In this document: positions 1 through 30,827 of the stretch, piece after piece | How positions within the stretch are numbered: position 1 is the stretch's first letter | Layout of the letters: the number at the start of each line of letters is the position of its first letter | Assembly (NCBI RefSeq): GCF_964204645.1 | Contig: NC_134033.1 | Location: 8,750,655-8,814,654, forward strand | Source of the DNA: Tubulanus polymorphus | Taxonomy: Eukaryota; Animalia; Nemertea | Direction: 5' to 3' | DNA length: 64,000 bases | Translations under genes and position numbers: made by a program | The notes under the pieces: generated by a model | What the model was told of the DNA's origin: nothing | The model's database searches: none | Seen by the model: only the letters and a program-made list of their open reading frames with translations

Positions 1-3000
1 AGTTTTATAAAGTCAGAAGAAAAAATGGATTATAATATTCAAACACACTCTGAAGAAATAATTTCAAAAACACAAATAAAAGAGAAGTTAGAAAAAATAT
101 TTAATGAATTTAAACGTCATATTGAAGAAAGATATTTTGAGGGTTCTGGCTTAACATTGAATGAAATTATATATTTAGATTTAAATGTTTATAATACAAA
201 AAGAAATAAAACATCAAAAAGTAATAAAATGTTTAAAAATGATTCAAACTTTATAACAGAAAAAGATATGAAAGCATCAAGTTATATCAAATTACCATTT
301 ATAACAAAAGCAGTAATAAATATTCAAAATGAAGATAATAAATGTTTTCTATGGTCAATTATTAGTTGCTTACATCCAACAGAAGAACATGTTTATAGAA
401 TAACAGATTACCAGAAATATGAAACATTATATAAAATTGATCAATATCCAGTAACTATAAAAATGATTCCTAAAATAGAAAAAGTTAATAATTTAAAAAT
501 AAATGTATTCGAATTAATGCAATTACCAAAGACAAAAGGTGAAAATATTAAAGATTATACATTGGAAGCTTTATATTTAACTGAATATTATGATGATGAA
601 AATGCTATAGATTTGTTATATTACAAAAAAGATGAAAATGAACATTATATGTGGTTAAAACAAATTGATTTATTCTTTAGAACAGAAAGTGATTTTAACA
701 GCCATAGAATTTATCTATGTAGAAAATGTTTATCTAAATTTAGAACTGAGAATACATTATTAAAACATAAAGAATTATGTGATAATAAAGATTTTTGTAA
801 ATTAATAATGCCAACAGAAAAAGATTATAAATTGAAATTTACTAATCATAAATTTAAAAATATTGTTCCATTTGTAATATATGGGGATTTTGAATCATTG
901 AATAAAGAATTAACTGATCAAGATAGAAAAGAAATATATAACAAAAAGCAATTATTAAAATCAATGGATAAAGGAAGTGAATTAAATGAAGACATAATAC
1001 AAGACCCACCAATTATAAATACAATTAAAAAAGTTCATCAAAGAGCTGCTGCTTATGGAATTTATATAAAATCAAATTATCCCGAATTATATGAAAGTCA
1101 ATATATTTCTTTTAGAGGTGAAAATGTAGTTAATGATTTTTGTGATAAAATGATTGAATTAGAAAGTGATTTTGCAAAATTATTGAATACAAATAAAGAA
1201 ATAATTATGACAGAAGAAGATGAAATTGATTTTAATTATGCAACTCATTGTTGTTACTGTGAAAAACGTTTTTATTCATTTGATAAAAAAGTAAGAGACC
1301 ATGATCATTTGAATGGAAAGTTTAGAGGCGCTGCACATGAGAATTGTAATTTACAAGCCAAAAAAGTAAATTTTGTCCCCATTATATTTCACAATTTATC
1401 GGGGTATGATACCCATCTATTTATAAAACAGTTATGCTATAAAATAGAAGAAATTAATAATGAAATAGAAATATTAAATTCAAATAGATTAAAAGATAAC
1501 AAAGTATCAACTTATAAATTTAAAATACTAGCTAAAACATCTGAAAATTATATTTCATTCCAATTTGGGTGTTTAAGATTTATAGATTCATATAGATTTC
1601 TAGCAAGTTCATTAGATAATTTAGCAAAAAGTTTAGTTGATAATGATTTTAAAATAACTCAACATTATTATCAAAATGAACAAGATTTTAAATTATTAAG
1701 ATATAAAGGAGCGATTCCATATTCTTTCTATAAAAATCATAATGATTTTAAAATAACAGAATTATTAAAAGATCAATTTTATGATAAATTAAAAGAGGAG
1801 TATGTGAAAGATGAAGTGTTTAATAGAACATTAAATATTTGGAACCATTTTAAGATGAAAAATCATGGTGAATTAGTTGATTTATATTTAAAATCAGATG
1901 TTATGATATTGGCTGACATATTTGAAAAATTTAGAGAAGTTAATTTGAATCATTTTAATGTTGATCCTTGTTATTGCTACTCTAGTCCTGGTTTAACCTG
2001 GCAATGTGGTTTAAAATATACAAATGTAGAATTAGATTTATTAAAAGAACCAGATATGGTTTTATTATTTGAAAAATCAATTAGAGGTGGAATTAGTGGT
2101 GTTATGGGAGATAGGTATTTTAAAGCAAATGATGAATATAAATTATTATATATTGACGCCAATAATTTATATGGTTGGGCAATGATGCAACCTCAACCAT
2201 ATAAAAATTTTATATTAACAGAAGTTGAAAATGATGATAAAACTGATTGGGAAAGCGCAATTATTAGTTTAAAAGACGAAGCACCAATTGGTTATTTCTT
2301 TGTAGTTGATTTAGAATATCCTGAAAATATAAAGTTTAAAACAAGAAACTTACCTTATTGCCCAGAACATTTAACTGTAGATGATAGTTAATTAAGTGAA
2401 TACCAGAAGAAAATAAAACCGAAAGATCATGTTTTTACAGAAAAATTAATACTTACTCAAAATAATAAATACAATTATATTGTTCATTATAGAATGTTAA
2501 AATTTCATCTAAAGCAAGGAATGAAATTAAAGAAAGTACAAAGATATATTGAATTTAATCAATCGAAGTGGTTAGAAAAATATATAGATTTCAATACTCA
2601 ACAGAGAACAATATCAAAAACAGATTTTGAGAAGGATTTTTTTAAATTGATGAACAATAGTTTTTATGGTAAAACTTGTGAGAATATTCGTAATAGAAAT
2701 GATATTGAATTAGTGAATAATTCTGAAAGATTAAGACATTTACAATCAAGCCCCAGACATTTACAAAATAAAAGATTTGAAGATTATTTAACAGCAGTAA
2801 AATTAAAAAGAACATCTATGAAATTTAATAAACCAATATTTATAGGTTCAACTGTTTTAGAAGTTTCAAAGCTATTGATGTATGAATTCTATTACAATGT
2901 TTTACAACCACTTTTTGGAGAAAAACATATAGAAATATTATATTTTGATTCTGTAACAGCTGACACCCCAATATTATTAAAATGTAATAATAAAATATTG

Positions 3001-4469
3001 GTAAGAAGAATTTCAGAAATAATTCCTAATCAAAATAAATCTTATATTTTGTATGGTGAAAAAGAATTAATACAAATAAATGGATTAATGGATGTTTGGA
3101 CAAGAAATGGATGGAAAAAATTAAATAATATTATTAGACATAAAACAAATAAGAAAATCTATAGAGTTAGAACTAAATTAGGATTTGTAGATGTTACAGA
3201 AGATCATAGTTTAATTAAACAAAATGGTGATGAAATAAAACCAACTGATATAAAAATTGGAGATGAATTATTACATAAAAGATTTTACCCAAGAATGAAT
3301 CATATGTCATTTGATGAAATAATTGATAATATTTATAATATAGAACCCGAAACATTAGAAGAAAAAGAATATTTTATCAAAGGATTTTTCATGGGTGATG
3401 GTTCAGCAGGTGTGTATAAATATGTTTGGGGTAATAAATATTGTTGGTATTTATGCAATCAAGACTTAAAATTATTAGAAAGAATTAAGAAATTTTGCGA
3501 AAAAGTTTATTCACATAAAACATTTAGAATCATGGACCATATGAAATCATCCGCGGTTTATAGAATACTTGTAAATAATCCTAAAGATTTTGCTTTAAAA
3601 TATAATGATGAATTCTATATTCATGCAATAGTGAAAAGTAATACTTCGACAAAAGAAAAGATAGTTCCAGATTATGTATTAAATGCAAAAAATAATTTAA
3701 GAAAATGGTTCTTCATTGGATTCTATGCAGCAGATGGTTCAAAAAGTTTCCAAAACCGCAAAACAATATCCTTTGCTCAAAAAGGAAAAGTTGCTATATC
3801 AGGATTAAATATATTATGTAATTCATTAGGTTTTAATATGAATATTGGATTGATTAAATCTAAACCAAATTGCTTTAATCTAAGCCATGTAGAAAATGAG
3901 TTAACTGAAGAAGTTAAAGATTTATTTGAAATATATAACCCAACTGACTATGTTTATGATTTATCAACAGATGATGGAACATTCAATTCTGGGTTCCCAT
4001 TAATCCAAAAAATACTGACAGTTACATACTAAAAATCAAGACAAATGACATAACAAAAGACTTAAAAACATTAAAACATCATTTTGATTTTAGCAATTAT
4101 CCTAAAGATCATGAACTATTTAGCAATGATAATAAAAAGATTCCTGGTAAATTTAAAGATGAATTAGGAGGTGATGAAATGATTGAATTTGTTGGGATAA
4201 GAAGTAAAATGTATAGTTAAAGAACAAAAGATCATGAAGCTAAAAAGTTAAAAGGAATAACAAAACATGTGGTTGATAAACATATAGAATTTCAAGATTA
4301 TATAAAGTGTTTATATAAATCAATTGTAATGAAACACAAAATGAATTGTTTAAGATCAGAAGATCATGAGATGTACATTAATGAAGTTGAAAAAACTAGT
4401 TTAAATCCATTTGATGATAAAAGGTATATTTTAGATGATGGTATAAAAACATTACCTTATGGCCATTAA
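1..4469 (+). pseudogene. polB: Protein-primed family B DNA polymerase (pPolB) with HNH/EndoVII-like insert and an intein; disrupted
   Basis: Motifs: exonuclease YGDFES, FHNLSGYD, IDSYRF; EndoVII-like CxxC...RDHDH...GAAHENCN; polymerase YIDANNLYG, KLMNNSFYGK, YFD[intein]TDS, GKFKDE, SKMYS, KLKG, DDKR. The frame is open from position 1. In-frame TAA at 2389-2391 and 4218-4220; 1-nt frameshift in an A-run at ~4007-4012. Confidence 0.93.
2950..4013 (+). mobile_element. Intein with dodecapeptide (LAGLIDADG) homing endonuclease at the pol-c site of pPolB
   Basis: Block A SVTADTPI directly follows YFD. Block B VDVTEDHSL (~3187-3213). LAGLIDADG-like motifs FIKGFFMGDG (~3373-3402) and FFIGFYAADG (~3709-3738). 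Block F YVYDLST. With one A restored, the C-terminus is ...LIQKN followed by extein TDS (4014-4022). About 355 aa. Confidence 0.93.
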
Positions 4470-5767
4470 AACATAAAATCAATATCATAATACTCGAAAT
4501 CACTATTGGCTTCTTCATTTTCATTTAATTGTTCAGGTTCTTCTTCCATTCCATTTTTCTCATTTAAATAAATTTCTATCTTGTTCCACATTTCATCTCG
4601 CTCTCTTTGTTTCTTTTTGTTTGTTAATTCATCAAATGGAATTATAATATCTAGGTTTAAATAATTTACAATCTTATTTAAAAAGAATTCATAATTTATT
4701 GAATCTGTTATTCTATTTTCCAAATGATACATTAATATTTGTTTAAATATTTTTCTTATATTTTCCATATCTTCTTCTGTTAATTTAGGTTTTTCATAAT
4801 AATCGTTAAATAATAAATATAAATACATTTTCTTTTCTTTTGTGTTAAATGTTGGTGGAATAATTGTTTTTATAATATCTTTTTTAGTTATTTCACCATT
4901 TTTATTTTCTATTATTTTCATTTTTTCAAGCCATTGTATATATTCTGGTGTATGATCTTCTATAGAAAATATTTTAAAAATTTCATCAAGATAATTTAAT
5001 TTTGGATCTATAAGAAAATTTCTAGTTTTTTCTTCATCCCATAAATTCTTTTGCCATCCACAATCAACACAAAATAACACAGTACCTTCTTGTCTTAAGG
5101 TCGCATAACTACATTGTGGACATTTTCGTTTATAATTTATTGGTAATAGATCTTCATTAAGCTCTTGGTATTTTCTTACGTTTTCTTTATGTTTTATTGT
5201 TCTATTATGTAGATTTGAATTACTTGTTGTAATAATCAATTTACAATATTTACAATAATATGTTTTTCTTGTTAATTCATTATATTGTTTTTCTAACTTT
5301 TCAATTGTTTCTTCATTATCTGGTAACGTTTTCTCATATTTTATTTTTTCTAATAAATTATTTTTTCTTTCATTGAATTCAGTTTCAAATTTATTAGAAA
5401 TTTTATCTATATGTGCTTTACGAAATTGATGATTCTCCCAATCTTCTTTATTATCAGGGATGTATTTCATTCGACAAGGCTCGCAGAAATGATTTTTTAT
5501 TTTATCCTTATCATAGAATAAGGAAGGTCTTTTCCAAATAATTTCAGGTTCAACTTCAGCAGAATTATTATCAACATTAGCTGTTGCGCCATTAATTCTA
5601 CACTTCTCTGAATGTTTTTTAACATAATTTCTTGAGAATAATTGATTACATTTTGGGCAGTTTATTTTAGGGGGTTTATAATTTTCATCATGTTTTTTCA
5701 TATGTCGAGCCTTATTACTTTTTCTTAGAAGTTCACCACAAATTTCACATGCTATCTTCTCATCCAT
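4466..5767 (-). CDS. Multi-zinc-finger protein with C-terminal poxvirus/NCLDV VLTF3-like late transcription factor domain
   Basis: N-terminal C2H2-like fingers (CEIC..H..H, CPKC, CEPC, CKYC..H..H), a Zn ribbon CPQC...FCVDCG, and C-terminal INYEFFLNKI..L...IPF...K....DEMWNKI, matching the VLTF3 pattern NY.f.L.K...D.iW.KI as I recall it. Confidence 0.7.
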   Translation of the reverse strand: MDEKIACEICGELLRKSNKARHMKKHDENYKPPKINCPKCNQLFSRNYVKKHSEKCRINGATANVDNNSAEVEPEIIWKRPSLFYDKDKIKNHFCEPCRMKYIPDNKEDWENHQFRKAHIDKISNKFETEFNERKNNLLEKIKYEKTLPDNEETIEKLEKQYNELTRKTYYCKYCKLIITTSNSNLHNRTIKHKENVRKYQELNEDLLPINYKRKCPQCSYATLRQEGTVLFCVDCGWQKNLWDEEKTRNFLIDPKLNYLDEIFKIFSIEDHTPEYIQWLEKMKIIENKNGEITKKDIIKTIIPPTFNTKEKKMYLYLLFNDYYEKPKLTEEDMENIRKIFKQILMYHLENRITDSINYEFFLNKIVNYLNLDIIIPFDELTNKKKQRERDEMWNKIEIYLNEKNGMEEEPEQLNENEEANSDFEYYDIDFMF

Positions 5768-10958: not shown

Positions 10959-12204
10959 ATGAGTGGGAGTTATATAAGTCCTTCTAAGATTTCTAGAATA
11001 TCTAACGCTATTAAAGCAGAAAGATCACATCATATAATTACTCATAACCCTTCAAATATTAATCCCGATGAAACTTTATACGTTAGAATCCCTCGATTAA
11101 CACAAAATACTTTTTACGTTCCAAATAGTATTTATTTATCTGCCGATATAAAAGTATCTGGTAATAATAATAATTATGTCGTTGATAATGTTGGAAGATA
11201 TTTGATTAAAAAGTTAACAATAAAGATTGGTCCAGAAACAGTTTTCTCATTAGATGATTATAATTTATTTATGCATTATAAAGATTTATGGTTAACAAAA
11301 GAAAATAGAAATAATATGATATTTCAAGGCATCCAATCAGAAAACCAAAATAAATTAAGATCAGAAGCTAATAGCGCAATATTAACAAATGATGTAGAAA
11401 TTGATAAAAAGTATATATGGAAGCAAATATAAAATTCCATTAGACTTTGAATTGATAAATAATAATGCGCCTTTATATAAATACGCAATTCAAGAAGATA
11501 TTATATTCGAGATAACATTTGCTCCTGTAAATGAAATTGTATTATCTAGCGTTAATAAAGATATGAGTTATAAATTATCGAATATATGTTTAGAATATGA
11601 TACAGTAACTGATGAAAATATTGCTAGAACAATTCAAACTCAATACAATCAAGGATTTTCATTATTATATGATTATATTGATAAATTTAAAACTGTAACT
11701 ATTAATGCAAATGATGAAATAATAAATGAGAATATTAACTTCCCAAGAAGATCTATTAAAGGTATATTAATATTTTTTACTATTGGAACATATACTAATG
11801 GTGCAATAAATGTTGACAATTATTATAATCCTGAAATAACAAAAGTAGAAATAACTATCGAAGGTATAGCGAATAAAATATTTTGTCAAGGAATGAGAAT
11901 GATAGATCAATGGGTAGAAATTAGAAAACATTTTATGAATGAAAAAATAAAATCATTTGAAAATTGTAACATTAATCAAATTGATTATTATACCGGTAAT
12001 AAATATGCATTATGGTTAGATTTTAGAACAACTGAAGATAATTCATTACATGGTTCTGGAAAAAAACTACAAAATACAAAAGATGGAATACAATTATTCA
12101 TGACAAAGAAAAAGGGAATCAAAAATTTTCAAATGCACATTTATATTATATCTGACGCGCAATTAAATATTATAAATTCACAATTAGATAGTATTCAATA
12201 TTAG
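10959..12204 (+). pseudogene. Major capsid protein (double jelly roll), frameshifted near 11400
   Basis: Two overlapping ORFs (10959-11432, 11401-12204) join to ~415 aa with a beta-strand-rich pattern (NPSNINPDETLYVRIP...IKKLTIKIG...YKIPLDF...ALWLDFR); size and position next to integrase/ATPase fit a Polinton MCP. Confidence 0.75.
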
Positions 12205-12234: not shown

Positions 12235-13362
12235 ATGAGTGGTAAAAAAACTACTAATACTAAAGAACAATATTTAAGAAATTTATATTACAACCCTGAG
12301 AGTTCGGTTGCTTATTCTTCTACTAAAAATATATGGCGTAAAGTAAAACAAGATAAATTAGATAAGATAATCTCACAAAATTTAGTTAAATATAAAGATA
12401 TAAATGAATTTATGTTAGAACAACCAACATATACAACACATAAAAAAATTGTTAGAAAATATAAAACTCGTAAAACTATGGTAAGTTATGTAGATCAACA
12501 GTGGCAAGGAGATTTAATTGATATGAAAAATGTTAAGAAAAATAATGATGATTATTGGTGGTTATTGAATATAATTGATATTTTTAGTCGTTATGTATGG
12601 AGTTTCCCACTTTATAGAAAAGATGCTGCACAAACATCACATGTTTTAAGAAAATTTCTTTCGGATGATAAACTAAAACCAGAAAAAATACAATTTGATG
12701 ATGGAAAAGAGTTTGATAATTCACTTGTTCGTGAACTCTTAGATAATCATAATATTAAATATTTTTCAACAAAATCAGATAAAAAAGCAGCAGTTGTTGA
12801 ACGATTTAATAGAACATTAAGAACAAGAATGTGGAAATATTTTACAGCAAATAATACTTTTAAATGGATTGATGTTTTACCAAAATTGATAGAAGGATAT
12901 AATAATTCTTATCATTCTTCTATTGGAATGAAACCTATTGATGCTAGAAAACCCGAAAATGCTGAAATTGTTTGGAATAATTTATACGAAGCATTTCTTG
13001 TTGATGATTTTGGTGAACCTAAATTTAAAGTTGGTCAAAATGTTAGAATTTCTAAGTATAAAAAGATATTTGATAAAGGATACGATCGAAATTTTACTAG
13101 AGAAATATATAAAATAAAAAAGGTAATAACAACAAAACCATATGTCTATAAATTAGAAGATTTAGATGGTGAAGAAGTTGATGGCTACTTTTATGAAGAA
13201 GAATTAAGTTTAACTACTGAAAATCTAGAACAAGAATATAAAATTGAAAAAGTATTAAAAACAAAAACTGTTAAAAGAAAAAAATATTCTTTAGTAAAAT
13301 GGGTTGGATGGCCAGATAAATTCAATGAATGGATATTATCAAGTAAAATTAAAAATATATAA
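12235..13362 (+). CDS. int: Retroviral-type (rve) DDE integrase with C-terminal chromodomain
   Basis: WQGDL..IDIFSRY, QFDDGKEF, KAAVVERFNRT, YNNSYHSSIGMKP; chromodomain YKIEKVL...VKWVGWPDKFNEWI. Confidence 0.95.
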   Translation: MSGKKTTNTKEQYLRNLYYNPESSVAYSSTKNIWRKVKQDKLDKIISQNLVKYKDINEFMLEQPTYTTHKKIVRKYKTRKTMVSYVDQQWQGDLIDMKNVKKNNDDYWWLLNIIDIFSRYVWSFPLYRKDAAQTSHVLRKFLSDDKLKPEKIQFDDGKEFDNSLVRELLDNHNIKYFSTKSDKKAAVVERFNRTLRTRMWKYFTANNTFKWIDVLPKLIEGYNNSYHSSIGMKPIDARKPENAEIVWNNLYEAFLVDDFGEPKFKVGQNVRISKYKKIFDKGYDRNFTREIYKIKKVITTKPYVYKLEDLDGEEVDGYFYEEELSLTTENLEQEYKIEKVLKTKTVKRKKYSLVKWVGWPDKFNEWILSSKIKNI

Positions 13363-13971
13363 ATGAATAAGGAATTATTCATATTTGAGCCTCATAATAT
13401 GTTAATTTCTGGTGTAACAAATTGTGGAAAAACTTATTTTATATTACATTTATTAGAAACTGTTTATGAAAACTATTTTGATAATATAGTATTATTTTGT
13501 CCAACATATGAATTTAATCAAACTTATGATAAAAATATTACTAGGAATAATAAATTTATTATATTAGATCCTAAAACAGTAAAAGAAAATTTAGATAATT
13601 GTATAAAAATAGCAATTGATATTTATAAAGGATCAAATACATTATTTATCATAGATGATTGTGCTAATATACATGATTCAAAAGTTAGAGAAAGTGAGTT
13701 ATGTTATTTAGCTTTTTCTGGCAGACATTTTGGGATAACAACTTGGGTTTTAAATCAAAAATATAATTCAATTGGTAAAGATTTTAGAGAAAATATTAGA
13801 TTTCTAGTTTTATTCTACAATAAAGATAGAAAATCGATGAAAAATGCACTTAAGGAAAATGATATTATTCCACATGATTTACATAATGAATATATGGATA
13901 AGTTGAAAAATATTAAAAAATCAAAATTACTATTTAGATTACAACACCCATTTAAATATGAATTTATTTAA
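13363..13971 (+). CDS. A32/FtsK-like DNA packaging ATPase
   Basis: Walker A GVTNCGKT, Walker B LFIIDD, GRH..I....Q and R.N motifs. Confidence 0.93.
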   Translation: MNKELFIFEPHNMLISGVTNCGKTYFILHLLETVYENYFDNIVLFCPTYEFNQTYDKNITRNNKFIILDPKTVKENLDNCIKIAIDIYKGSNTLFIIDDCANIHDSKVRESELCYLAFSGRHFGITTWVLNQKYNSIGKDFRENIRFLVLFYNKDRKSMKNALKENDIIPHDLHNEYMDKLKNIKKSKLLFRLQHPFKYEFI

Positions 13972-15337: not shown

Positions 15338-15664
15338 TTAATCAACAATTTCTAAATCATGATGACCGTCTTCATTTTTCCCATGATAGATTATTTTAAA
15401 TCCTTCTAAATCTTTTAATTCCTCTGTACTCAATGAAACCCATTTATCAGGTAAAAATACTTTAAATTCTCGCGATGTATTAACATTACAGTATCCTAAA
15501 TTAGCTGATACTTTCTCTCCATATTTAGTTTTTATCTTTTCTAATTTCAATATTTTATGTTCAATTTCTTTTGTAACATCAACTAACTTTTTTATTTCAA
15601 ATTGTTTTTTTGCTGGTTTTATTCTGTTATTTATTGTTGCTAAGAATGCTTTTCTGTCTCCCAT
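15338..15664 (-). CDS. Small terminal protein, possibly OB-fold nucleic-acid binding
   Basis: 108 aa with TKYG.KV...L...KVFLP pattern; ATG lies within the right TIR; degenerate homologue at ~21797-22130. Fold assignment is tentative. Confidence 0.55.
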   Translation of the reverse strand: MGDRKAFLATINNRIKPAKKQFEIKKLVDVTKEIEHKILKLEKIKTKYGEKVSANLGYCNVNTSREFKVFLPDKWVSLSTEELKDLEGFKIIYHGKNEDGHHDLEIVD

Positions 15665-15750
15665 TTATTAGGAAAAAAAAATTACTTGTGGTGATGAGTG
15701 GTGTTTAGTACTCTCGTACTCTGGCCTGAAAACGCCATCTTCCAATTACT
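15658..15750 (-). repeat. Right terminal inverted repeat of Polinton copy 1
   Basis: Reverse complement starts AGTAAT and contains TTTCAGGCCAGAGTACGAGAGTAC and CTCATCACCAC, as does the copy 3 left TIR at 17868. Confidence 0.9.
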
Positions 15751-17768
15751 GGTGAAGAAGTTGATGGGTATTTTTATGAAGAAGAATTAAGTTTAACTAC
15801 TGAAAATCTAGAACAAGAATATAAAATTGAAAAAGTATTAAAAACAAAAACTGTTAATAGAAAAAAATATTCTTTAGTAAAATGGGTTGGACGGCCAGAT
15901 AAATTCAATGAATGGATATTATCAAGTAAAATTAAAAATAGATAAATGAATAAGGAATTATTTATATTTGAGCCTCATAATATGTTAATTTCTGGTGTAA
16001 CAAATTGTGGAAAAGCTTATTTTATATTAAATTTATTAGAAACTATATTTGATAATATAGTATTATTTTGTCCTACATATGAATTTAATCAAACTTATGA
16101 TAGAAATATTACTAGAAATAATAAATTTATTATATTAGATCCTAAAACAGTTAAAGAAAATTTAGATAATTGTATAAAAATAGCAATTGATATTTATAAA
16201 GGATCTGATACATTATTCATCATAGATTATTGTGCAAATTTACATGATTCAAAAGTTAGAGAAAGTGAGTTATGTTATTTAGCTTTCTCTGGGAGACATT
16301 TTGGGATAACAACATGGGTTTTAAATCAAAAATATAATTCAATTGTTAAAGATTTTAGAGAAAACATTAGATTTTTAGTTTTATTCTATAATAAAGATAG
16401 AAAATCGATGAAAAATGCACTTGAGGAAAATGATATTATTCCACATGATTAACATAATGAATATATGGATAAATTGAAAAATAATAAAAGATCAAAATTA
16501 CTATTTCGATTACAACACCCATTTAAATATGAATTTATTTAGATTCAACTAGCTTGTTAGTCTAGTATATTTTTAGTTACATTCTAGTTTAATTCTAGTT
16601 GTTAGTAGTTGAAACAAAAATCAAATAAAATTCAACAAGAAATAAATAAAAACAACAATATTTCAACTTGCTTGTTAATCTAATATATTTTTAGTTACAT
16701 TCTAGTTAAATTCTAGTTGAATTCTAGTTGCAACATCACAACTAATTTTTTTTGTTATATAAATGGGTGGTGAAAAGAAAATAAAATCTAAAAATAGTGA
16801 TGTTCCGATTGGAAAAACTTTGGATGATTTAGGTATAACAGAAACAAAATTAGCGTCAGATGATAATGGTGCTTTAAATGATATTACTACAAATAATAAT
16901 TATCAATATTATCTTTATTGCAAACATCGCTTAGAAATATTAATTGCATCTGGGAAATGTAAAAATTTTATTAGTAAAAATTTAACTTATAATGAATTAG
17001 GTACAATGAAATCAGATGAAATTATTAGATTATTTATGAAACTGCGAGAACAGCTAGAATTAATGATGCGATGTCAGAAAATGCAGTAAAAGGTTATAGT
17101 AAATTATGCAATTATATGCTACCAATTCAAGATGAAAATGAATTATATTCCGATTTAAAAAATGATTACTTAGTTATGACTGAATTAAATAAATGGATTG
17201 GATATTTATCATTTCAATTAGGTGGATTTATGACATTATTATCAACTGGAGTTATAACATTTTCAAATATTGAAAGTAAAAATATTTCTATAATAAATGA
17301 GCTAAGTGCGAGAGGTGAAAGAATTAACTGTGAAGAAAAAACCGAGATCACAGAAACAAACTGACTGGTCTCGGCAATTAGGAATTAGATCACTAGAATA
17401 TAAAAAGCTATAAAAGAAAAAATAAATAATTAAGATGTTAATGAAAATGGTGAAAATGTTGTTATTTCTACTACTTCTAATAATAGAATATTTGATAAAT
17501 ATTTATATTTTACAACTGGTTTGTAATTGTATTCATTTTGATTGGGTGTAGTTGGTATAAGAAATCAGATAAAATTTATGATATTAATAATTCTGAAACT
17601 ACTGCTATTAAAAATGAAAATACTTCTAAAATTCCAAAATTCATAATAAAAAAAATGGATTGATATTTTAGAAAAAACAAAAAAGCAAAAAAAATGATTT
17701 TATTTTTAATTAATTGAATATCTCACTACTTTTGTATATCTACGCGGAGCAATTGAATTGTCCAGATA
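15751..17768 (+). mobile_element. Polinton copy 2 remnant (integrase 3' end, ATPase and two downstream genes, degraded)
   Basis: Colinear with 13168-~15283 of copy 1; ATPase ORF 15946-16452 has mutated Walker motifs and a premature stop; ORFs 16763-17089 and 17071-17364 are frameshifted. Confidence 0.92.
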
Positions 17769-17867
17769 CTTCTCTCCTCAGTGTTGTAATTAAGAAACAA
17801 ATGGTATCAAATATCAAGAGCCCAATGGGTTTTAATGATTTGAATTTAATTTAAGTATTGTACTCAT

Positions 17868-20800
17868 AGTAATGGGGAAATGACGGTTTCAGGCCAGAGT
17901 ACGAGAGTACGACTCATCACCACTTTTATTTTTATTTCCTTATAAATGGGAGAGAGTGAACACCAAACAGAAAAAATGATGTTATTAAAAATCAATATTA
18001 TTGTACATATTGTAAAAAATACATTGATAAATCTAATATTAACATCTGATTATAGATTTTGAGACACCAGAATATTCCAATGAAAGAAAAGAACAATTAG
18101 AAAATATGAAAAAAGATGAAATTAAATGTAATGTTTGTAATAAATTTCTAAGTAAAAGAAATTATGATAGACATCATCTTGAATCACAAAAAAACACAAA
18201 CAGAATTTAAGTAAAAATATTTTAGGAACAGAATATATTGAGGATAAATCTCAATTTTAGAAACATTACATAGTAAAATTGGTCCTGCAGCTATTATATT
18301 TAGATTTTTTAAAGGTGCGACGATAGAAGATTATAGTAGATGTATTGAAATAATGGAAAAAATAATTTGTAACAGATGTTGTAACAGATGTTGAATCTCC
18401 AAAATTTAGTATTTCTGGAAAAGTAAGTTTTATAAAATCAGAAGGAAAAAATGTGTATAATATTCAAACACATTCTGAAGAAATAATTTCAAAAACACAA
18501 ATAAAAGAGAAATTAGAAAAAATATTGAATGAATTTAAACGACATATCGAAGATATTTTGAGGGTTCTGGTTTAATTATAATTATATTTTAAGATCTAAA
18601 TATCTATAATACAAAAAGGAATAAAACATCAATAAGTAATAAAGTGTTTACTAATGTTGGATATTCAAGCGTCATTTTATATTAGATTACCATTTACAAC
18701 AAAGCAGTTATAAATGTTCAAAATAAAAATAATAAATGTTTTCTATGGTCAATGATCAGTTGTTTACACCCTACCGAGGAAAATGTTTGCAGAATAACAG
18801 ATTATTGGAAATATGAAACATTATATAGAATTGATTAATATCCAGTAACTATAAAAATGACACCTAAAATAGAAAAAGTTGATAATTCAAAAATAAATGT
18901 ATTCGAATTAATGAAATTCCAGAGACAAAAGGTGAAAATATTAAAGATTATGCATTAGAAGCTTTATATTTAACAAAACATTATGATGATGAAAATGTGA
19001 TAGATTTATTATACTATAAAAAAGATAAAAATGAACATTATATGTGGTTATAACAAATAGATTTACTTTTCAGAACAGAAAGTAAATGTAGAAAGTAAAT
19101 AGAAAGTAAACAGATTTGAATAGTCATAACAAGATATATTTATGTAGAAAATGTTTATCTAAATTCATTACTAAAACATAAGGAATTATGTGATAATAAA
19201 GAATTTAACTAATTAATAATGCCAACAGAAAAATACTATAAATTGAAATTTACTAATTATAAATTTACTAAATATAGTTCCATTTGTAATTTATGGGATT
19301 TTGAATCGTTGAATAAAGAATTAACTGATCAAGATAGAAAAAAAAATTATATAATAAAAAGCAATTATTAAAATTGATGGATAAAGGAATGAATTAAATG
19401 AAGACATAATTCAAGACCCGACGGAAGCGTCCTGAGGACATATCTATAAAAGAATTTCGAGGTTACTTCCGAGTTTGAGAAAACTAGTTTATTCCGAGTT
19501 GCAAACTCGGAATAAACCTCCAAAAATCACATTTAACTATGAAAACTAGTTTATTCCGAGTTACAAACTCGGAATTGACCTCAAAAATCGTATTTAACTG
19601 AGAAAACTAGTTTATTCCGAGTGGCAAACTCGATTTTAACCTCGATTTTTTTACAGAAATGTCCCCAGGACGCTTCCGTAGAATTGTAATAGGAGGAATA
19701 TCATATTTTAAATTTTAATTTTTTTATTATATAAATGGCAGAAGGTGGTGAAGAAATTGGAATGGATACTTTTGATGAATCTGGTATAACTGATGTACAA
19801 GAACCTGTTTTTAATGAAACAAGTTTAAATAATGATGATAATGAAACAGCATATAATACTAATTTAGCAACACCATATAATAAATTTGATAATAATTGAA
19901 TACTGAAAATTTAGATCCAAAACTAGAAAAAAAAGTATTAGATTTTGAAAAAATGATTGATGATTTTTAACCAATATTACAAAAATCTGGATTTAATATA
20001 ACTGATAAAGGTGCTAGTGCACCAAATTTGATAGATCTAAATGATGATTATTATTGGCATTTGAAAGATGACTATTATTTTAAGATATCTTCTGATAAAA
20101 GTCGTGATAAAATAGTAACAAAATCAACTTTGGTTAGATTAGAACAATCTAGAACTAAAAGAATAAGTAATAATAATGATGATATAACTGATGACAAGAA
20201 ATAAATGAAAATAGAGGAATATTTAATGGAAGGAATGATGAAGATAATTAATGAAAATTTAGAACCAGAAACAATTGGTAACGAAGTTATCAACTCAGAA
20301 ACCAGTACATAACCAAAACAAGAAAATAAAAGTGTGATGGGCCGGGATACGTCATCAATGTTTACATGCTGATAACAGTATTAAAATCGTTGTATACAAG
20401 TTAATTAGGAAGAATTGGAAATTTCAACTAGCATTATGCTAAACAACAACAAGAGTAGAAATGAATGGCCAATTATAATTTTTTGCCTGCAGTTCCCCTG
20501 TTAAGATTTTAGAGAAAACATTAGAGTTTTAGAATTAGTTTATAATAAAGATAGAAAATCAATGAATAATGCACTTGAGGAAAATGATTTACATAATGAA
20601 TATATGGATAAATTAGAAAAAAATAAAAGATCAAAATTATCATTTCGTTTACAACATCCATTTAAATATGAATTGATTTAAACTCAACTAGCTTGTTAAT
20701 CTAGTATATTTTTAGTCACATTCTAGTTAAATTCAATTGTAACAACACAACTATTTTTTTGTCATGTAAGTGGGAGGTGAAAAGAATATATAATCTAAAA

Positions 20801-22208
20801 AAGTGATTTTACAATTGAAAAAACTTTGGATGGTTTAGGAATAACGGAAACAGAATTAACTTCAGATAATGGTGCTTTAAATGATATTACTAAACGTAAT
20901 AATTTTAAATATCATCTTTATTGCAAACATCAATTGGAAATATTAATTGCATCTGGGAAATGTAAGACTTTTTATTGGTAAAAATTTAACTTATATTGTA
21001 TTAGGTATAATGAAATCAGATCAAATTATTAAATCATTTAAGATTTATGAAACTGCAAGAATAGCTAGAATTAATGACGCGATTTCAGAAAATGTACTAA
21101 AAGGTTATTCTAAACTATTAATGATATGCTCCCAATTGAAGATGAAAATAAATTATATTCTGATTTAAACAATCATTTAGTTATGACTGAATTAAATACA
21201 TGGATTGGGTATTTAATATTTCAATTAGGTGGATTTATGACATTGTCATCAACTGGAGAAATAACATCTTCAATATTGAAAGTAAAAATTTTTCTATAAT
21301 AAATGAGCGAAATGGAAGAAGTGAAAGAATTAACCGTGAAGAAAAAACCGAGATCACTGAAACAAATTGAATGGTCTCGGCAATAAGATTTTAAATCAAA
21401 AGAATTTAATAAAGCTTAAAAAGAAAAAATAGATAATGACAATTTTGATAATAAAGATGAAAGTAATGTTATTTCTACTGCATATAAATTATTTAATAAA
21501 TATTTTAATTATTCAACTGGATTTGTAATTGTTGTTAATAATTCTGAAACTACTACTGTTAAAAACGAAAAAATTACTGAAATATCAAAATTCACTATAA
21601 AGATAATGGATTAAAAGTCTAGAAAAAAAGAAAAATAATAATTTTGTTCTATAATATTTCTGTTTATAATTAATTAAATATCGCACTACTTTTGAGAGAT
21701 AAGTCATTTCGGATTCTTGATATTCAATTTAAAAGAAGAGAATACATTTTAATAATTTTATTTTTATTTTCTAATTTTCTATTATTTTTGAAATATTTAT
21801 TCAACAATTTCTAAATCATGATGACCAACTTCATACTTTTTATGATAAATTATTGTGTAACCTTCTAAATCTTTTCATTTATCTTTATTTAATGAAACCC
21901 ATTTATCAGGTGAAAATATTTTAAATTCTCGTGTTATACTAACATTACAATGACTCAAATTTGCTGATATTCTCTCACCATATCTAGTTTTTATGTTTTC
22001 AGGTTTTAATATTCTATGCTCAATTTCTTTTGTTACATCGACTAATTTTTTTATTTCGTATTGTTTTTTTGCTGGTTTTATTTTTTAATTATTGACGCTA
22101 AGAATACTTTTCTGCCCCCCCCCCTCCCATTTATAAGGAAATAAAAATAAAAGTGGTGATGAGTCGTACTCTCGTACTCTGGCAAGATACCGTCATTTAC
22201 CCATTACT
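17868..22208 (+). mobile_element. Polinton copy 3, internally deleted, both TIRs present
   Basis: ~85-bp TIRs at 17868-17952 and 22124-22208 with AGT...ACT ends. Contains degraded pPolB 5' part (17946-19420), part of the coiled-coil gene, ATPase 3' end and terminal genes. Confidence 0.92.
19421..19680. mobile_element. MITE with (T)ACGGAAGCGTCCTG TIRs (IS3EU-like termini) and internal ~60-bp tandem hairpin repeats
   Basis: ACGGAAGCGTCCTGAGGACAT...ATGTCCCCAGGACGCTTCCGTA; three units containing TTCCGAGT..CAAACTCG. Confidence 0.75.
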
Positions 22209-22611
22209 GCTGATTAATTGAAAGACCATGAATCATTTGCAATTTAATTTTCTAAGTATCAATAGATTAACCGAATACATGTACATTTAATTTTGTCAAA
22301 ATATTATTTGTTTGTGCTCCTAAGAAAAAAAACCATTTTCATTCATTCTGAGTTTTGTTACAAGTTCTGTAGTGTTCAGATTATTTGAGAAGAGCCATTA
22401 GGAAAGTTTATGTATTAGCTTTACTTTGTAACACGATACATTTGACATTAAGGCACGTGAGGTACTATGTGACCCAGGTGCGAAAAAACATTCTTATGAG
22501 TTATGTATTTTATCATGTCAACTTATCTTTTTTCACAAACTGTAGCCAAAAATACTGCTGGTCAGTTCAAGAATTAACAATACAACGAGCCCTATCGAAT
22601 TTGACATCGGA

Positions 22612-23070
22612 TGAAGTTTTGGGAAGTGGTCATTTGTGGTAATCAGTGGTGGTCAACTTTGAAGTTGCAATGATGAATCTTTTTTAGCCGAAATCAAATC
22701 TTTCCCATATTCGAGACGTTTGAATTGGTCAGTATGGTCAATTTATAAATTTGCAATGGTGAATCCTTTTTAGTCTGTACACCTAACGCGGTATATCGTT
22801 CACATGTTCGAGAAGTTTGAATTGGTCAGTGGTGGTCAGTGATGGTCAATTTATAAATTTGCAATGGTGAATCCGTTTTAGTCTGACACAAAACGCTGTA
22901 TATCGTTCTCATATTCGAGAAGTTTGAATTGGTCAGTGGTGGACAGTGATGGTCAATTTATAAGTTTGCAATGGTGAATCATTTTAGTCTGACACGAAAC
23001 GCGGCATATCGTTCTCATATACGATAAGTTTTAATTGGTCAGTAATGGTCAGTGACGGTCAATTTATGAA
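22612..23070. repeat. Tandem repeat, ~4 units of ~110-120 bp
   Basis: Recurring GTTTGAATTGGTCAGTGGTGG...GGTCAATTTATAAATTTGCAATGGTGAATC. Confidence 0.85.
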
Positions 23071-23760
23071 CTTAATAAAGAAATTTATGCTTTGAATAGA
23101 ACAGCGACCCATGATTGGCTGACTTGGCCAACTTGTCACACCCCGCGCAATATAAAATGACTTGATACTATGGCTGCTGACTAGCTTTATCTCCCGATAG
23201 CTGTCATCATAAAGCAATTCTGTTGTTTTAGTGGTAATAAAAAGCGATAAAGATATTGATAGATCTCCGAAAAGTGGATGTATTAGGATCGTAGCTATAT
23301 CGGCATGTGTATTCGGATCGCTGTTATATCGGCATGGGCACGAGATACGAACGGAGGCCGTATATTCATCCTCTAGTGTTAGCTGTTAGACGTAAAGGGG
23401 TGATTCTTCAATAATTGAACGATATCCTGTCTCCGGTGTGTTGTGGCCCATAAAATCCGCAAAAATTAATATTTTCAAAATTTTCCTTTAGATCAATGTT
23501 CTAGGTAGTCCAGCAGCCGTGGCAGTTTAGATGGATTTCTCTGTTATTGTTGTTTTCTATGTTGATTATTCATCTATAGGATGTCTGTGATGAAGTCCAA
23601 GTGGGTGTAGGGTCGTCACCCTTGGGCAATTCCAGAAATCCAAGATGGCCGCCGACAGCCATTTTGTAATTTATCAAAAATCAACTTTCTTACCGATTGA
23701 CCTACAAGTAAATGTGATACATCTTTTCTGACTAATTTGATGTTGAGGAATCCATTTCTG

Positions 23761-23868
23761 GGTCCAGTTCCACAGTTCTGAGTTAAGATTTGACCCTGGG
23801 TTAAAACATTGAAAATAAACTAGCTTTAACTCAGATTTAACTCAAACTCACAACTGTGGAACTGGGTC
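23761..23868. mobile_element. Small Harbinger-like MITE inserted in the Academ left terminal repeat
   Basis: CCAGTTCCACAGTT...AACTGTGGAACTGG inverted ends; CTG duplicated on both sides; removal restores ATCCATTTCTGATGTTTATTT as at 24001. Confidence 0.8.
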
Positions 23869-24296
23869 CTGATGTTTATTTTATGATTTGACATAACCGT
23901 GGCAACGGAATCCAAGATGGCCGCCATTTTCACAACTTTGTTGCCGATTGACCTACAAGTCAATGTGCTACATCTTTTCTGACTAATTTGATGTCTAGGA
24001 ATCCATTTCTGATGTTTATTTTGTGATTTGACGCAACCATGGCAATGCATTTAACCTCAAATCAATTTGACAAATTGATGTTTATGTACTATTTACACAT
24101 GTACATGTATTTATTTTACGAATCAAAGAATTTCTTAGTGCAATCATTACAACATAACCTTTAACCCTGACAGAAAATGTATTTAACAGCAAATTAATCT
24201 TAAACTGAGTTTTCTGTACACGTCTATTTATAAAGTATCTAACAACTTTTAAAGTGCTTTCATTACTACCAGCATCGTTTACCCCGTATTCAACAT

Positions 24297-27200
24297 CTAA
24301 TTGATTGAATGACACTGTTTTTCATGTACACATCTATAAAATAATGTACACGCTAATCCAGCACGACTGCAACTACACCTCTGTGTTTTACAAGGCACAT
24401 TGGCCGAACAAGAGCATTTGATTAATTTGAGTAAGTCTTGCGGAGCTAAAGAAGTGCCTTCTGGCACTGATACAGGAATTAGCGATTTTCGTTCCCGAAT
24501 CCATCCAAATTCGGTTGGATCTAATTCAGGAGGGTTTGGTAGGAGCGCATGCCTCCAAACTGTAGCCTGGAAATGTGCGCGTGCAACATTTGCTTTGAAA
24601 GCTTCATTTGTAGGTGGCAAAGAAGCTAACTTTGGGGCTGAAGCCACACTCTGCCCTACTTTGTTTGACCATCCTTTTTGTCTTGCTTCTGTCATCGATT
24701 CACAATTGGACTGTCCATAACATGCTAGAACGAATGGTGTCGAATGGTGAACGAATGCCTGTGCTACTACCTCAGATAAGCTACTAGTACTACCTAACTT
24801 GGACAAGGAGCACAAACCACTTCTGAGTACTTTTAGCATTACACCTTTGCCAATTCCGAAGTACGGTGCAACGGTATCACAACCACTGAGACAATGAGCT
24901 GCCAACAGATCAGGAATAATGGGGCAGTGCTTTTCGATTGTCGCATTTATGTCAATGACTGCCCGTCCATGTATTGGGGAGACCATGAAAACACGGCCAG
25001 ATATGTCACCAGAGAAATGGAAATGCAACAACATCACAAATATATCCGTGTCATCCGCGATAACAATCGATGTAGCAGCATTCACTGTTGATACTTGTTG
25101 CACAATAAGTGTATCTCCTTCCTCCTGAGTTGTAGTCATATCATTCCGCCGAATGACTGTTCCAGATTTAATGTGGACTGGTGTCGGATCACTAGCTGTA
25201 ACTATGAGATTGTTCCCATTGAATTCTCCAGAATGGGTGGCAAGATCTGCGGATATCATGTTGATCAATTGCAATTTGTTGGCTGAGACAGTGAGCATTA
25301 CTTTCTGTGGTGGAAGTTTTGTAGTGGGAATCAATGTGTAAACTCGACTTGCACCTTGTTCTCTGCCATGACGTGTGGACTCCTTGATGCTACCATCTTG
25401 GTATCTGTCAAATACAAGGTATACATCGCTAGTTTTCAGTTTACTGCGGATGTAAGAACGGAACCGATCTAGGAAGTCTTGTACATTTCCATTGGGCCAA
25501 GGTATCACCCATAGTACAGCACAACCATCGAGGAAGGTGGCATCGATCTCACTGTCTGCGATCCTACTTGAAATCTCAACTTTGAGTGAGTTCTTCAAAT
25601 TAGATTTTGTCTTTGGTTCACGCATGTGACCAGATGCTTCGAACATCGACGCTGGGTATGGTGCTAACTCGTGAGCTAAGATACTGTTGATGTCAAGGTC
25701 ACGCGAGTTATACTGCAAGCCCATAGCCCTGGCATAAATCATTTCAGGGTCGTACACCTTCACATCACCGACTTTGATGTGTTTCCGCGAGACTGACATC
25801 GTGATCACAACCCTTGGAATAGTCTCATGAAAGCTACCAGGCCAACTCTTTTCAAAAGACTGCATTTGTGACTTGCCTAGTGAAACTGCATTGTCGACAT
25901 TTAATGTTGGATGACTGACCAACTTCCCTGATTCGATGTTGACTATACCATCTGATGAGTTAGATCGGGCTTTAAAGGGTCTATACATAGCTCCAGCTTT
26001 TCCCGAAGTAACATTCTTTGATCAACATCAGTCTTTATGCTTGACTTCATTTCCTCTTTGTGTTTTGTTTGCACTGGCAGTTCATCATACTCTCTCATCT
26101 GGTTCAACTGGTGAATAATCGCATTGCATGTATGTCAACTGTATGCCCATGTTTTGAGCGTATTCGGCTTGAGTGTGATTCCGATTATTCCATTACGACC
26201 GTGACCATACCGCATAAATGTGGTTTCAATGGCCATATCACTCCAGATACCATTGAACAGTCCATCTTTGTGGTGCATTGTGTGCTGTCCCTTCATGAAA
26301 TACTCCCGTACGTCAGCTGGCATCGACTCCATTGAGCGCAAGTAATAGAGCGCATACCTGGCATAGTGAACATGGTTTGCTGCAAAGAACATGGGTACCA
26401 TCTCCTTAACAACTGCAAGATGGAGCGGCCAATCGGCTTCGCGTTCAGCTCGTATGTATTTCATTATAAGGAAGACTGGCCTAATAAGACAGTCAACCCA
26501 GAGTTTGGACGTTCTGCTCTTTGAAGAAATGTCATCAAGCACACATTGAAGGTCTGTCATGCCTGTAAGTTCCTGTGATTCAAACAATGGTCGCAGCAAC
26601 TCTTCGACTAACAATCTGAATGCTCTAACGTTTTGTGGATACTTTTTTCCTGTTAACATTTTCAATACACCACCAAATGGAACACTCAGAATTTCTACAA
26701 TGCCGGAGTCTGTCATCAGAGTAGTACCAATGCAGCCACAGTAACTCATTAACAGATGCATTCCACCTAATCTCAAATAATAGTTCCTGAACATGGCTGG
26801 ATTCTCCCAGGTGATGTGTACGGCAATGCGATACAGTTGCTGGTCAGCTGTAAATACAACAAACTCTTGGCCGGCATTATGTGATACATCTTTTGCCACA
26901 AGCAATGCTGTCATCATTGTCGCAGGTTCTGCTGGCGGGCTGTCTACAAGCGGAAGGTACACCACTCTTGTTTTTGGTTTCCTTGAATGGCCTTGCTCTC
27001 GACACAATCTGGTGTTGTGACCATTAAACTCGGGGCACGCCTTGCTGCTCAGGATATCTTCGAAAAAGGCAAAATCCGCTTCCTGCGCTCTGTAGCTAAA
27101 AACCTGCTGATGAGTCACTACATCTGGTGAAAGAACTGTTCTGGGAATCTGAGGCATGGGGGGATTCTTTTGCCCGATATAATCGATGAGTTGATCCACT

Positions 27201-28595
27201 TCCTCGACCCCTACAGGCTGTGACATTTCCTCCTTTTTTACCCTTCTCATGGTTCCAGGATTTGTTGTCTCATCACTGGTTGGTTGCATTACTATTGTTG
27301 CAAGGGAATGTGTAGATAGTTTTCCACTTGGTGAACTGATATCAGCATCAAAGTTATCTGATACAACCTGGACTAATCCATGTTTCTCTACTGTCAACAA
27401 CCGATGCCGCTGCAGCTGACTTCTTAAAGCGGAGAACCTCATCGTAACTACACGTGACTCGATAGTCATACATGTGATTAACTATCAATTTAGAGTCTCG
27501 AAGTAATACACCCAGGGCAATCTGAATATCTGTTGCTCTGTTGTTTACTATACTTGTTACAATGCTCCCTTTCAGCAATGCCGGTAAAGTGCATTTTTCT
27601 AGCTTTGGTGAGATTGTAGCTAGAAGACACTGTAATGTCTCGGAAACCTGATCGCCAGCTGTATGCTTATCGATGTGTACGCTATAAGATGATTTCGACC
27701 AATCGAGCTTCTGGCAATCCTTCCTTATCTGATTGGCAAGACTGACAGTATCATATTCAAGATCATCAGCTTCCTTGTCCTTTACCAGTTTTTTCACAAA
27801 CCCAGCATTATTTCTAAATAATAAGATGGATGCATATCCTCGTGAGGATAGTGTAATCAATTCCCCACGAAAGTGTTTGATAAGTTCAACAATCAAGGAT
27901 TTCCGGGATAGCACGTTTCCACCATGATGTTCATATTGTTCAAACAATTCTACTGAATTCCATATGCACGTTTTGTCATTAGATAATTCCGCTATTACAG
28001 ATTTCAGAGCTAGATCTGTGTTCTGAACTTCAGATTTATCACGATTGTTATTATCAAGAAGCCTCATGCCAACAAATGCACTCATACAGTCCTTGTGATA
28101 ACGGGCTTCAGCTGCAATTAGATCACTCACTGCACCTTCCAAGCGAACTCGAACTTCATTTGCCCATCTATCACCACGGGCATTACATTTGTCTAGTAAA
28201 TATTGTTTGTATGTTTGGCGCCCGTGATCGGAATGTGTTAATCGGCATAAATAAGCTGGTCTCCATCTGTCCGGGTGTTTTGAGTCTTTATTTACCACAT
28301 CACATGATTCGCCACAATAAAGACACTGATCTCTGAACTCAAATAGAGCAGTTGATGAGCGCCGTTGTTTCTTAGGTGGTTCATTATCTTTAGTGACATA
28401 AGGTCCAAGATTAGTCTTTGAGGTGTATCTCGAGACACAATTCTCGTGGTAACATACCGGTATTGTGACATCGGGATCATCTGCAAGTTGCGTTTCGAGA
28501 TCAAGATGTAACGTGTCACCATATATCTTGCTTGCACTTATGGAGTGTGTATGCGACCTGGTCCATTGGATCTGGTGATCGGTCCAGCACCACAC
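24297..28595 (-). pseudogene. Academ transposase with XPG/PIN-like nuclease and Cys-rich C-terminus, frameshifted
   Basis: ORFs 27354-28595, 26135-27469 and 24297-25988: DLIAAEARYH..C, DNFD, TADQQLY, LGGMH, HYARY, WSDMAIETT, DDTDIF, SGCDTV..GIGK, CSC..C..CSC..CT. Confidence 0.85.
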
Positions 28596-30516: not shown

Positions 30517-30827
30517 GTGTAGGGCTAGTCTCTAAGTATCATAAATAGATACCGGTATTTTCTTATGTTGCAAATAGATAAACTTTGCTATCAATTAAAA
30601 CAAAAAATTATTAAAAAGTATAGAAGTGCGAAAGCAGTAACACTAATGTAATCTCAGATTTTTAATCATATGTAAGATTACATTTGATCTTACACACCCG
30701 AATGTTCGTCGGACAATTCTTTACGTGGCGGCCTGAAGTCTAGAGCCACTACGGTTTTTGGCGGTAATTAAGACAGCCGGTAGGCGGTGAAGTGGTCGAT
30801 TCTTGGAGGATTAGAAAAAAGGGGAAC

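Follow-up and report, generated by a model that had tools for sequence, protein, structure and literature searches.

Animal Hedgehog/Hint autoprocessing domains have the HINT fold of inteins, but they lack an endonuclease, join no pair of exteins, and are immobile. Surveys locate the eukaryotic inteins in the genomes of fungi, algae and protists, in plastids, and in giant viruses (PMC5784728, PMC10710043, PMC10643990). The pol-c site of family B DNA polymerases (PolBs) is an archaeal and giant-virus intein allele (PMC549080). In the Polintons, HNH and VSR nuclease domains have been found inside the protein-primed PolB (pPolB) (Jeong et al. 2023, PMC10748475; Krupovic et al. 2024, PMC11071308), and in one sentence Krupovic et al. 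propose that such inserts "result from intein invasions" (PMC11071308). Here we analyze a stretch of 64,000 nucleotides from the Tubulanus polymorphus assembly (contig NC_134033.1; hereafter, the window), which begins inside the pPolB gene of a Polinton whose catalytic motif is split by an insert. The insert is a pol-c intein with predicted splicing activity in intact copies, and we think it probable that it homes among Polinton copies and arrived from a giant-virus-type polymerase.

The motif YFD/TDS (the slash marks the junction) is interrupted after the Asp, with YFD at 2941-2949 and the Asp codon at 2947-2949 on the + strand. The parts of the polymerase and of its intein are as follows.

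1..2949, +: N-extein of the pPolB, ending in YFD and open at the 5' edge of the window (PF03175, E 1.2e-12)
2389..2391, +: in-frame stop in the N-extein (a different letter in 263 of the 264 family reads over the codon)
2950..4013, +: intein, a HINT splicing domain into which a two-motif LAGLIDADG endonuclease is inserted (profiles and fold model; bounds from the 1064-base skip in reads)
2950..2976, +: block A with Ser1, SVTADTPIL (translation, alignment)
3196..3207, +: block B TxDH, here TEDH (T83, D85 and H86 the same in all 46 aligned inteins)
3376..3402, +: LAGLIDADG motif 1, IKGFFMGDG, acidic residue retained (model helix 136-150)
3712..3738, +: LAGLIDADG motif 2, FIGFYAADG, acidic residue retained (model helix 248-266)
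3952..3963, +: block F, VYDL (translation, alignment)
4000..4007, +: frameshift in block G (other length in 33 of the 93 reads that cover it)
4008..4013, +: terminal Lys-Asn, in the frame of the C-extein (translation)
4014..4469, +: C-extein, beginning Thr-Asp-Ser (translation)
4218..4220, +: in-frame stop in the C-extein (translation)

The N-extein contains the exonuclease and polymerase domains, and an HNH-like Endonuclease_7 stretch (PF02945, E 3.4e-4, under the cut-off). The intein (YFD/S...KN/TDS) is 1064 nucleotides long, and the +1 Thr, followed by Asp-Ser, makes up the first codons of the C-extein (4014-4022, +). With Ser1, a terminal Asn and Thr at +1, the window intein has class-1 junction residues.

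The window intein scores 31.1 bits with the TIGR01445 intein_Nterm profile (cut-off 24.5) and 31.9 with LAGLIDADG_3 (cut-off 22.5). The Pfam Intein_splicing match is under its cut-off of 35.8 in the window intein (28.3, E 1.8e-6), and over it for the related P0002 intein described below (37.7). At the sequence level the window intein also matches PI-PkoII. An AlphaFold model built from a 46-row alignment has a pLDDT (the predicted value of the local distance difference test) of 85.6, while folding from the single sequence gave only pLDDT 35. The top matches of the model in the PDB are homing-endonuclease inteins (TliVMA, PhoVMA, PI-PkoII, PI-PfuI, PI-SceI and I-DmoI), and its top viral matches are the PolBs of phycodnaviruses, Pandoravirus, Megavirus and Marseillevirus. 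By profiles and fold model, then, the insert is identified far beyond chance as a true intein with HINT and LAGLIDADG domains at the pol-c site, and as judged from its sequence it has every feature of a class-1-type intein with a LAGLIDADG domain.

An earlier sequence-only reading of the window had claimed a full-length intein at 2950..4022 in the polymerase of a Polinton, with YFDTDS split after the Asp and all intein hallmarks present, and had proposed searching it with Hint and LAGLIDADG hidden Markov models. The hallmarks are found where the list places them, with Lys-Asn and Thr-Asp-Ser together at 4008-4022; the profiles and the fold search agree that this is a true intein in a Polinton pPolB. 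Its start stands, but its end has to be moved to 4013, since 4022 counts three codons of the C-extein. "Full-length" holds for the domain content and fails for the precursor, given a frameshift in the intein and two stops in the polymerase. The terminal Lys-Asn and the +1 Thr are read in another frame than the remaining intein blocks. Due to the frameshift at about 4000-4007 and the stops at 2389-2391 and 4218-4220, the window copy is unable to make the precursor: this polymerase copy is a pseudogene, the dead relic of its family. The first stop is missing from 263/264 reads and 33/93 reads have another length at the frameshift, and thus the family is better preserved than the copy in the window.

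Are there empty sites left in this family? The whole stretch is covered by four sequencing runs, which stem from three samples of two studies and share a species label. In X5, a run of raw reads (1934 Mb read, at 85% likeness), 68 reads with 45 different starts omit exactly 1064 bases and form precise empty junctions, and a further 44 join the flanks with other TDS codons, for a total of 112 intein-less junction reads. In X5 the intein has a mean depth of 208, against 308 for four bins of the flanks, the two bins that straddle the intein junctions being excluded. From this ratio of 0.68 we estimate that about half to two thirds of the related copies carry the intein. There is one intein copy per 9.3 Mb read, and the Polinton family probably has tens of copies per genome, if integrated. 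Intein-plus and intein-minus copies of the window family coexist under the same species label.

Related inteins occur in other Polinton polymerases. The 120 listed long proteins with related inteins comprise 8 pPolBs, 106 RNA-primed PolBs, 5 topoisomerases II, and one protein of the ADP-ribosylglycohydrolase type; the label "RNA-primed" takes in cellular Pol delta, such as that of Chloropicon. The 8 listed pPolB inteins are from 62% down to 41% identical to the window intein, and another intein-bearing pPolB, P0167, was found through the extein search. An exhaustive search of 50% representatives gave 2094 matches, and the best 150 of these contributed P0419, a pPolB whose intein is 75% identical, together with a fragment; 125 of the 138 new matches among those best 150 are in RNA-primed PolBs and one is in a pPolB. 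In all 7 complete pPolB relatives, blocks A, B and F are retained, as are the Asn at the end and the two Asp residues of the endonuclease. Their penultimate residue is His in 4, Lys in 2 and Ser in 1, and Lys is also found at that position in 52 of 102 inteins of the RNA-primed-PolB type. In intact relatives the insert is in frame, and close relatives have the empty YFDTDS site. The 120 listed extein matches divide into 99 empty, 1 with intein and 20 without the site, a tally that is biased and not a frequency because the search left out proteins of more than 1379 residues. Using P0001 as a query, IMG/VR returned no Polinton-type locus, and the ESM Atlas returned only generic LAGLIDADG/intein clusters.

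As a separate observation, inteins of the same radiation are present in topoisomerase II and in the ADP-ribosylglycohydrolase-type protein (P0005, which has two inteins, P0090, P0110, P0117, P0119 and P0029). They reside at D/S or D/T sites that resemble the polymerase motif, a non-allelic spread.

Two protein clusters from long contigs, each of which may span more than one genome, contain both states. Among 15 listed members of the P0002 cluster (136 members) 7 are intein-plus, 6 are minus and 2 fall short of the site; among 15 listed members of the P0006 cluster (121 members) the numbers are 5, 1 and 9. Full-length exteins of the P0002 cluster are 94-99% identical. Over 1191 extein columns, 9 residues are shared by all 7 plus copies and seen in none of the minus copies, and all 9 lie between -7 and +44 of the site. 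Plus and minus copies diverge by 30.2% up to 15 residues from the site and by 2.1% elsewhere; minus copies diverge from each other by 15.8% near the site and by 2.6% elsewhere. The empty copies carry DTDA and DCDS instead of DTDS. In 8 of 25 informative columns all four combinations with the intein state are present. This flank pattern is what an intein copied with flanking codons from a diverged donor would leave, together with the survival of altered targets. In haloarchaeal inteins, both resistant alleles and co-conversion have been described (PMC10643990). The sequence-only reading had suggested a survey of plus and minus alleles, and both are seen, in these clusters and in the reads; its suggestion that the intein homes between Polinton copies is consistent with the conversion-tract signature, with which a one-time capture is consistent as well. 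Nor does the intein stand alone: inteins of its clade occur across several lineages of Polintons.

The pPolB-type inteins form a single clade (support 100/99 with 9 rows, and 100 with 12 distinct rows that include the window intein). On a 50-row N-extein tree, from which 8 rows that were too short or lacked the site had been dropped, the intein state changes at least 6 times. One case is P0004, with an intein 47% identical to that of the window; its N-extein has no similarity by BLAST (best E 0.85). A VSR-like motif leads us to take P0004, a candidate Polinton, for a member of the second pPolB class. Inteins that are 47% identical within exteins of no detectable similarity are not the result of vertical inheritance, and horizontal movement of the intein between polymerase families is well supported by these comparisons.

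Outside the pPolBs, the nearest kin among the listed matches are giant-virus-type PolB inteins, the best full-length ones 33-43% identical. The 40 loci that we inspected, out of 37 viral, 80 metagenome and 70 prokaryote ones, almost all have sites of the YGD, YAD or YSD type. The GenBank phages gave 2 weak matches to the intein, and prokaryotic pol-c inteins are more distant from the Polinton inteins than the giant-virus type is. A spacing of 19 residues between blocks F and G is found in all 8 scored Polinton inteins and in a 23-member PolB clade, and most of that clade also has the FNxG[FY]PL-type end of the Polinton inteins. One of the 23 is GVMAG-M-3300020169-51, listed as Imitervirales IM_01. 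The intein likely reached Polintons horizontally from a giant-virus-type polymerase.

Two cellular-type Pol delta catalytic subunits, P0102 (from Chloropicon primus) and P0011, have a pol-c intein of the giant-virus radiation. Moreover, three contigs (L118, L119 and L121) from metagenome-assembled genomes (MAGs) with prokaryote labels, two archaeal and one Acetobacteraceae, have PolB inteins that group with the giant-virus type and not with the archaeal pol-c inteins; they are either true members or mis-binned viral contigs.

The element that hosts the intein extends from beyond the 5' edge of the window to a terminal repeat at 15750, and is followed by Polinton remnants and then by host-like DNA.

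4466..5767, -: gene for a zinc-finger protein, running toward the polymerase gene (convergent) (zf-U1 over its cut-off)
10959..12204, +: likely major capsid protein gene, broken into two overlapping frames (Capsid_N E 7.6e-4, under the cut-off)
12235..13362, +: integrase of the retroviral type, with a chromodomain (rve E 5.4e-11; Chromo E 2.3e-4)
13363..13971, +: A32-like packaging ATPase (Pox_A32 E 3.3e-13)
15654..15750, -: the intein-bearing element's right terminal inverted repeat, ending ATTACT; the left repeat is beyond the window
15751..22208, no strand: decayed related Polinton DNA, without the intein or its site
22209..64000, no strand: host-like DNA with remnants of a DNA transposon and of Harbinger-like, Bel/Pao-like and long interspersed nuclear elements; no cellular gene recognized

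Downstream of the polymerase, the intein-bearing element also has several open reading frames (ORFs) of no assigned function. By its integrase, ATPase, capsid and terminal repeat, the host gene of the intein is identified as the pPolB of a Polinton/Maverick (adintovirus). No adenain-type protease was recognized among the scanned ORFs, the left part of the element being beyond the window. The right end of the element adjoins the interior of a related element's integrase gene, a decayed remnant. A third element of 4.3 kb is internally deleted and has both terminal repeats (17868-17952 and 22124-22208), which are 95% complementary and start AGTAAT; its 6-bp flanks differ from each other. Inside the polymerase remnant of this deleted Polinton is a short element (19421-19679) with 35-nucleotide inverted ends and internal repeats, probably a miniature inverted-repeat transposable element. 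Degenerate repeats of 100-118 nucleotides lie between the ATPase and the next gene, at 13951-14272 and 16544-16769.

The content of G and C is 21-26% in the Polinton part and 31-44% beyond 22208. Scanning the window for tRNAs and Rfam families gave no match, and no host gene was recognized in the flank. Three long overlapping ORFs at 24297-28631 (-) belong to a large transposon-like element with a weak DUF6589 match, and their relatives are named CXC-domain proteins in hagfish, icefish, pearl oyster and amphioxus. At 38892-41587 and 47735-49642 there are a Harbinger-like pair, made up of a DDE_Tnp_4 transposase and a Myb/SANT gene, and the remnant of a Bel/Pao-like gag-protease. For one flank ORF, 6 of the 120 listed relatives have a taxon, 4 of them marine animals and 2 with bacterial MAG labels. 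Of the 120 listed extein matches 13 have a taxon, 12 of which are insects at about 33% identity. From these relatives, an animal host for the intein-bearing Polinton is likely. A Polinton-type pPolB under a Sulfurimonas label in UniRef (P0162) is probably host-animal DNA in a MAG.

TAAATG stands at 11 of the 19 ORF starts between 4466 and 15664, compared with 7.5% of all ATGs, mostly behind a run of Ts (TAATTTTTTT...TAAATG); most of the remaining 8 starts belong to fragments or antisense shadows. TAAATG is the poxvirus post-replicative start element (PMC4542343), and these starts may hint at a dependence of the Polinton on a large DNA virus, which would be a plausible meeting place for intein transfer. 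The helpers that such starts point to would be poxvirus-like, and there is no poxvirus among the intein-bearing families listed by Green et al. (PMC5784728), which weighs against this link. A depletion of TTTTTNT on coding strands (11 vs. 72) is uncontrolled for strand composition and we do not use it.

How would such an intein live in a Polinton? The insert splits the catalytic aspartate motif, and for that reason the element needs splicing. In intact copies, class-1-type splicing would restore a working polymerase, as Ser1, TxDH, the block-F Asp, the terminal Asn and the +1 Thr lead us to infer. The endonuclease would cut the empty site of another Polinton copy, either integrated or replicating, and repair would copy the intein together with some flanking codons; the intact endonuclease motifs and the conversion-like tract suggest this cutting step. 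Empty copies with changed site codons would be the survivors. The intein appears to have crossed between polymerase families without detectable extein similarity, a discordance that is seen directly and whose direction is a matter of interpretation. A single entry into Polintons would be most likely, from the RNA-primed PolB of a large DNA virus in the same cell, after which the intein would have moved among Polinton lineages.

Several observations weigh against this account, and they have to be set beside its rivals. The window copy is not translatable throughout, and splicing and cutting are predictions. Away from the site, the plus copies of the P0002 cluster are 0.7% apart from each other vs. 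the 2.1% to empty copies and 2.6% between empty ones, which equally fits one capture and then plain transposition. A real splicing intein that does not home could have been captured once per family from a diverged donor and multiplied by transposition or viral replication, and the flank differences would then be the scar of that event. All plus copies share a single flank haplotype, as this would have it, and in the P0006 cluster the empty allele persists with unchanged flanks. The columns with all four combinations put the intein on several backgrounds, which speaks for homing, but ordinary recombination can also explain them. What makes us regard capture without homing as rather unlikely is that both endonuclease motifs are intact in 7/7 complete relatives, whose lineages range from 40 to 62% in identity with the window intein, and that the empty copies are sixfold more variable beside the site than elsewhere, as if cleavable alleles had been removed. 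As for the origin, the trees are not decisive. FastTree nests the Polinton inteins deep among giant-virus-type inteins, with Shimodaira-Hasegawa-like support only, and we set this placement aside, since the approximately unbiased (AU) test does not reject a position basal to all giant-virus-type inteins (p 0.50 and 0.70 with archaeal outgroups). Nested, basal, and sister to the 23-member clade are tied (AU tests, p 0.3-0.7). A nesting of the P0004 intein among those of class-1 pPolB hosts was not significant either: the data do not reject a clade restricted to inteins of class-1 hosts (p 0.12). In archaeal inteins, too, blocks F and G are 19 residues apart (13 of 13 scored), and this spacing may therefore be ancestral. 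Since the AU tests do not separate the placements, the direction from giant virus to Polinton rests on abundance and site history, and poor gene calling in animal Polintons inflates the giant-virus excess among the matches. The intein could instead be old in Polintons, having entered or arisen in an ancestral pPolB, been lost many times, and seeded some giant viruses. A tree with the Polinton inteins outside fits equally or slightly better, and intein and extein trees agree in part, as in the P0002/P0003/P0167 group. We nonetheless find this history improbable, given the similar inteins of P0004 and the window in exteins without detectable similarity and the commonness of pol-c inteins in the RNA-primed PolBs of archaea and giant viruses (PMC549080) as opposed to their rarity in pPolBs; the FastTree placement would point the same way. 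The sequence-only reading had the intein jump from a giant virus to a Polinton. The kinship to inteins of RNA-primed PolBs, many of them on giant-virus contigs, is borne out, while the direction is not settled by these tests. The donor is not specifically Mimivirus-like: an Imitervirales IM_01 genome belongs to the group with the distinctive C-terminal motif, and Pol deltas of cellular type, such as P0102, are among the relatives.

Finally, the element might be outside the animal germ line altogether, as a free virus, symbiont DNA, or a protist Polinton-like virus joined by an assembly error. The junction of Polinton and host is a putative one, the depth of short reads is blind to whether copies are integrated or free, and five small runs under the same species label have almost no matching words, a weak indication. 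The case for an animal host is built on transposon relatives (4 of 6 with a taxon are animals) and on no host gene. On the other hand, the cluster stops exactly at a terminal repeat beside DNA of different GC content; the decayed polymerase and capsid genes and the nested elements look like chromosomal relics; reads 85-100% alike come from 3 samples and 2 studies under one species label; the flank transposons are of animal types; and the taxon-named extein matches are insect Polintons in 12 of 13 cases. We consider a source outside the germ line very improbable. A bolder version of the homing account, which we put forward as tentative and would not yet wager on, is that the drive is still active, with a giant-virus-derived intein sweeping through the multi-copy Polintons of several aquatic animals, converting their empty copies, selecting resistant codons at the catalytic site, and hopping between unrelated polymerase classes. 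If so, genetics would directly attest that giant viruses and animal Polintons share replication compartments.

A Polinton-borne intein would extend the range of inteins to animals by way of endogenous viruses. With the target repeated tens of times, and plus, empty and altered copies side by side, it offers a natural system for the homing cycle and for resistance alleles in an animal. A shared intein would also be a traceable marker of contact between Polintons and large DNA viruses, and bears on the question of whether animal Polintons are virophage-like. It would imply that inteins can home between polymerases whose divergence is too great for ordinary homology; for archaea and Mimivirus, Ogata et al. 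deemed this implausible (PMC549080).

In the literature that we searched (which did not extend to subscription journals, Repbase, InBase and supplements), no true intein is described in a Polinton, in a protein-primed polymerase or in an animal nuclear genome, as the sequence-only reading had expected for Polinton pPolBs. The word "intein" is absent from PMC10748475, PMC8502044, PMC11296320, bioRxiv 10.64898/2026.10.13.758929 and 10.1101/2025.04.19.649669, and has unrelated mentions in PMC12220804, PMC3671162 and PMC5718144. Outside microbes, algae, fungi and their viruses, we found no description of such homing. The homing inteins of Polinton polymerases apparently are an undescribed clade, polymorphic within a probable animal genome.

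The closest described inteins are those at the pol-c site of Mimivirus PolB and other Nucleocytoviricota, which interrupt YGD/TDS where this one interrupts YFD/TDS (Ogata et al. 2005, PMC549080). The Mimivirus-type intein has the same size (351 residues), and shares Ser1, the terminal Asn, the +1 Thr and the LAGLIDADG domain (PMC549080). Unlike the Nucleocytoviricota inteins, the Polinton inteins are hosted by the protein-primed PolB of a small integrating element, have a target that is multi-copy per genome, and form their own clade. Archaeal pol-c inteins (Thermococcus, Methanocaldococcus, Nanoarchaeota) share the motif C site, Ser1, the order of the blocks and the 19-residue spacing between blocks F and G, but are only 24-28% identical over long stretches, have about 390 residues and a His-Asn end, and are the outgroup in all trees. 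PolB inteins on nuclear scaffolds are also known from Klebsormidium, Tetrabaena and a labyrinthulomycete, where they sit in endogenized giant-virus polymerases (Gallot-Lavallee et al. 2023, PMC10710043). The same study covers the nuclear inteins of Anaeramoeba, and its viral carriers of inteins and its intragenomic spread resemble the Polinton case (PMC10710043). The hosts in that study are algae and protists, with viral-like polymerases that derive from integrated giant viruses; animals and Polintons are absent from its main text (PMC10710043). As for the HNH and VSR domains of Polinton pPolBs, they are reported without a splicing domain, and "HINT" and "LAGLIDADG" are, like "intein", absent from the text of Jeong et al. 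(PMC10748475). The insert in the window, unlike those domains, is a unit of HINT and LAGLIDADG placed in the catalytic motif itself, present in some sister copies and absent from others.

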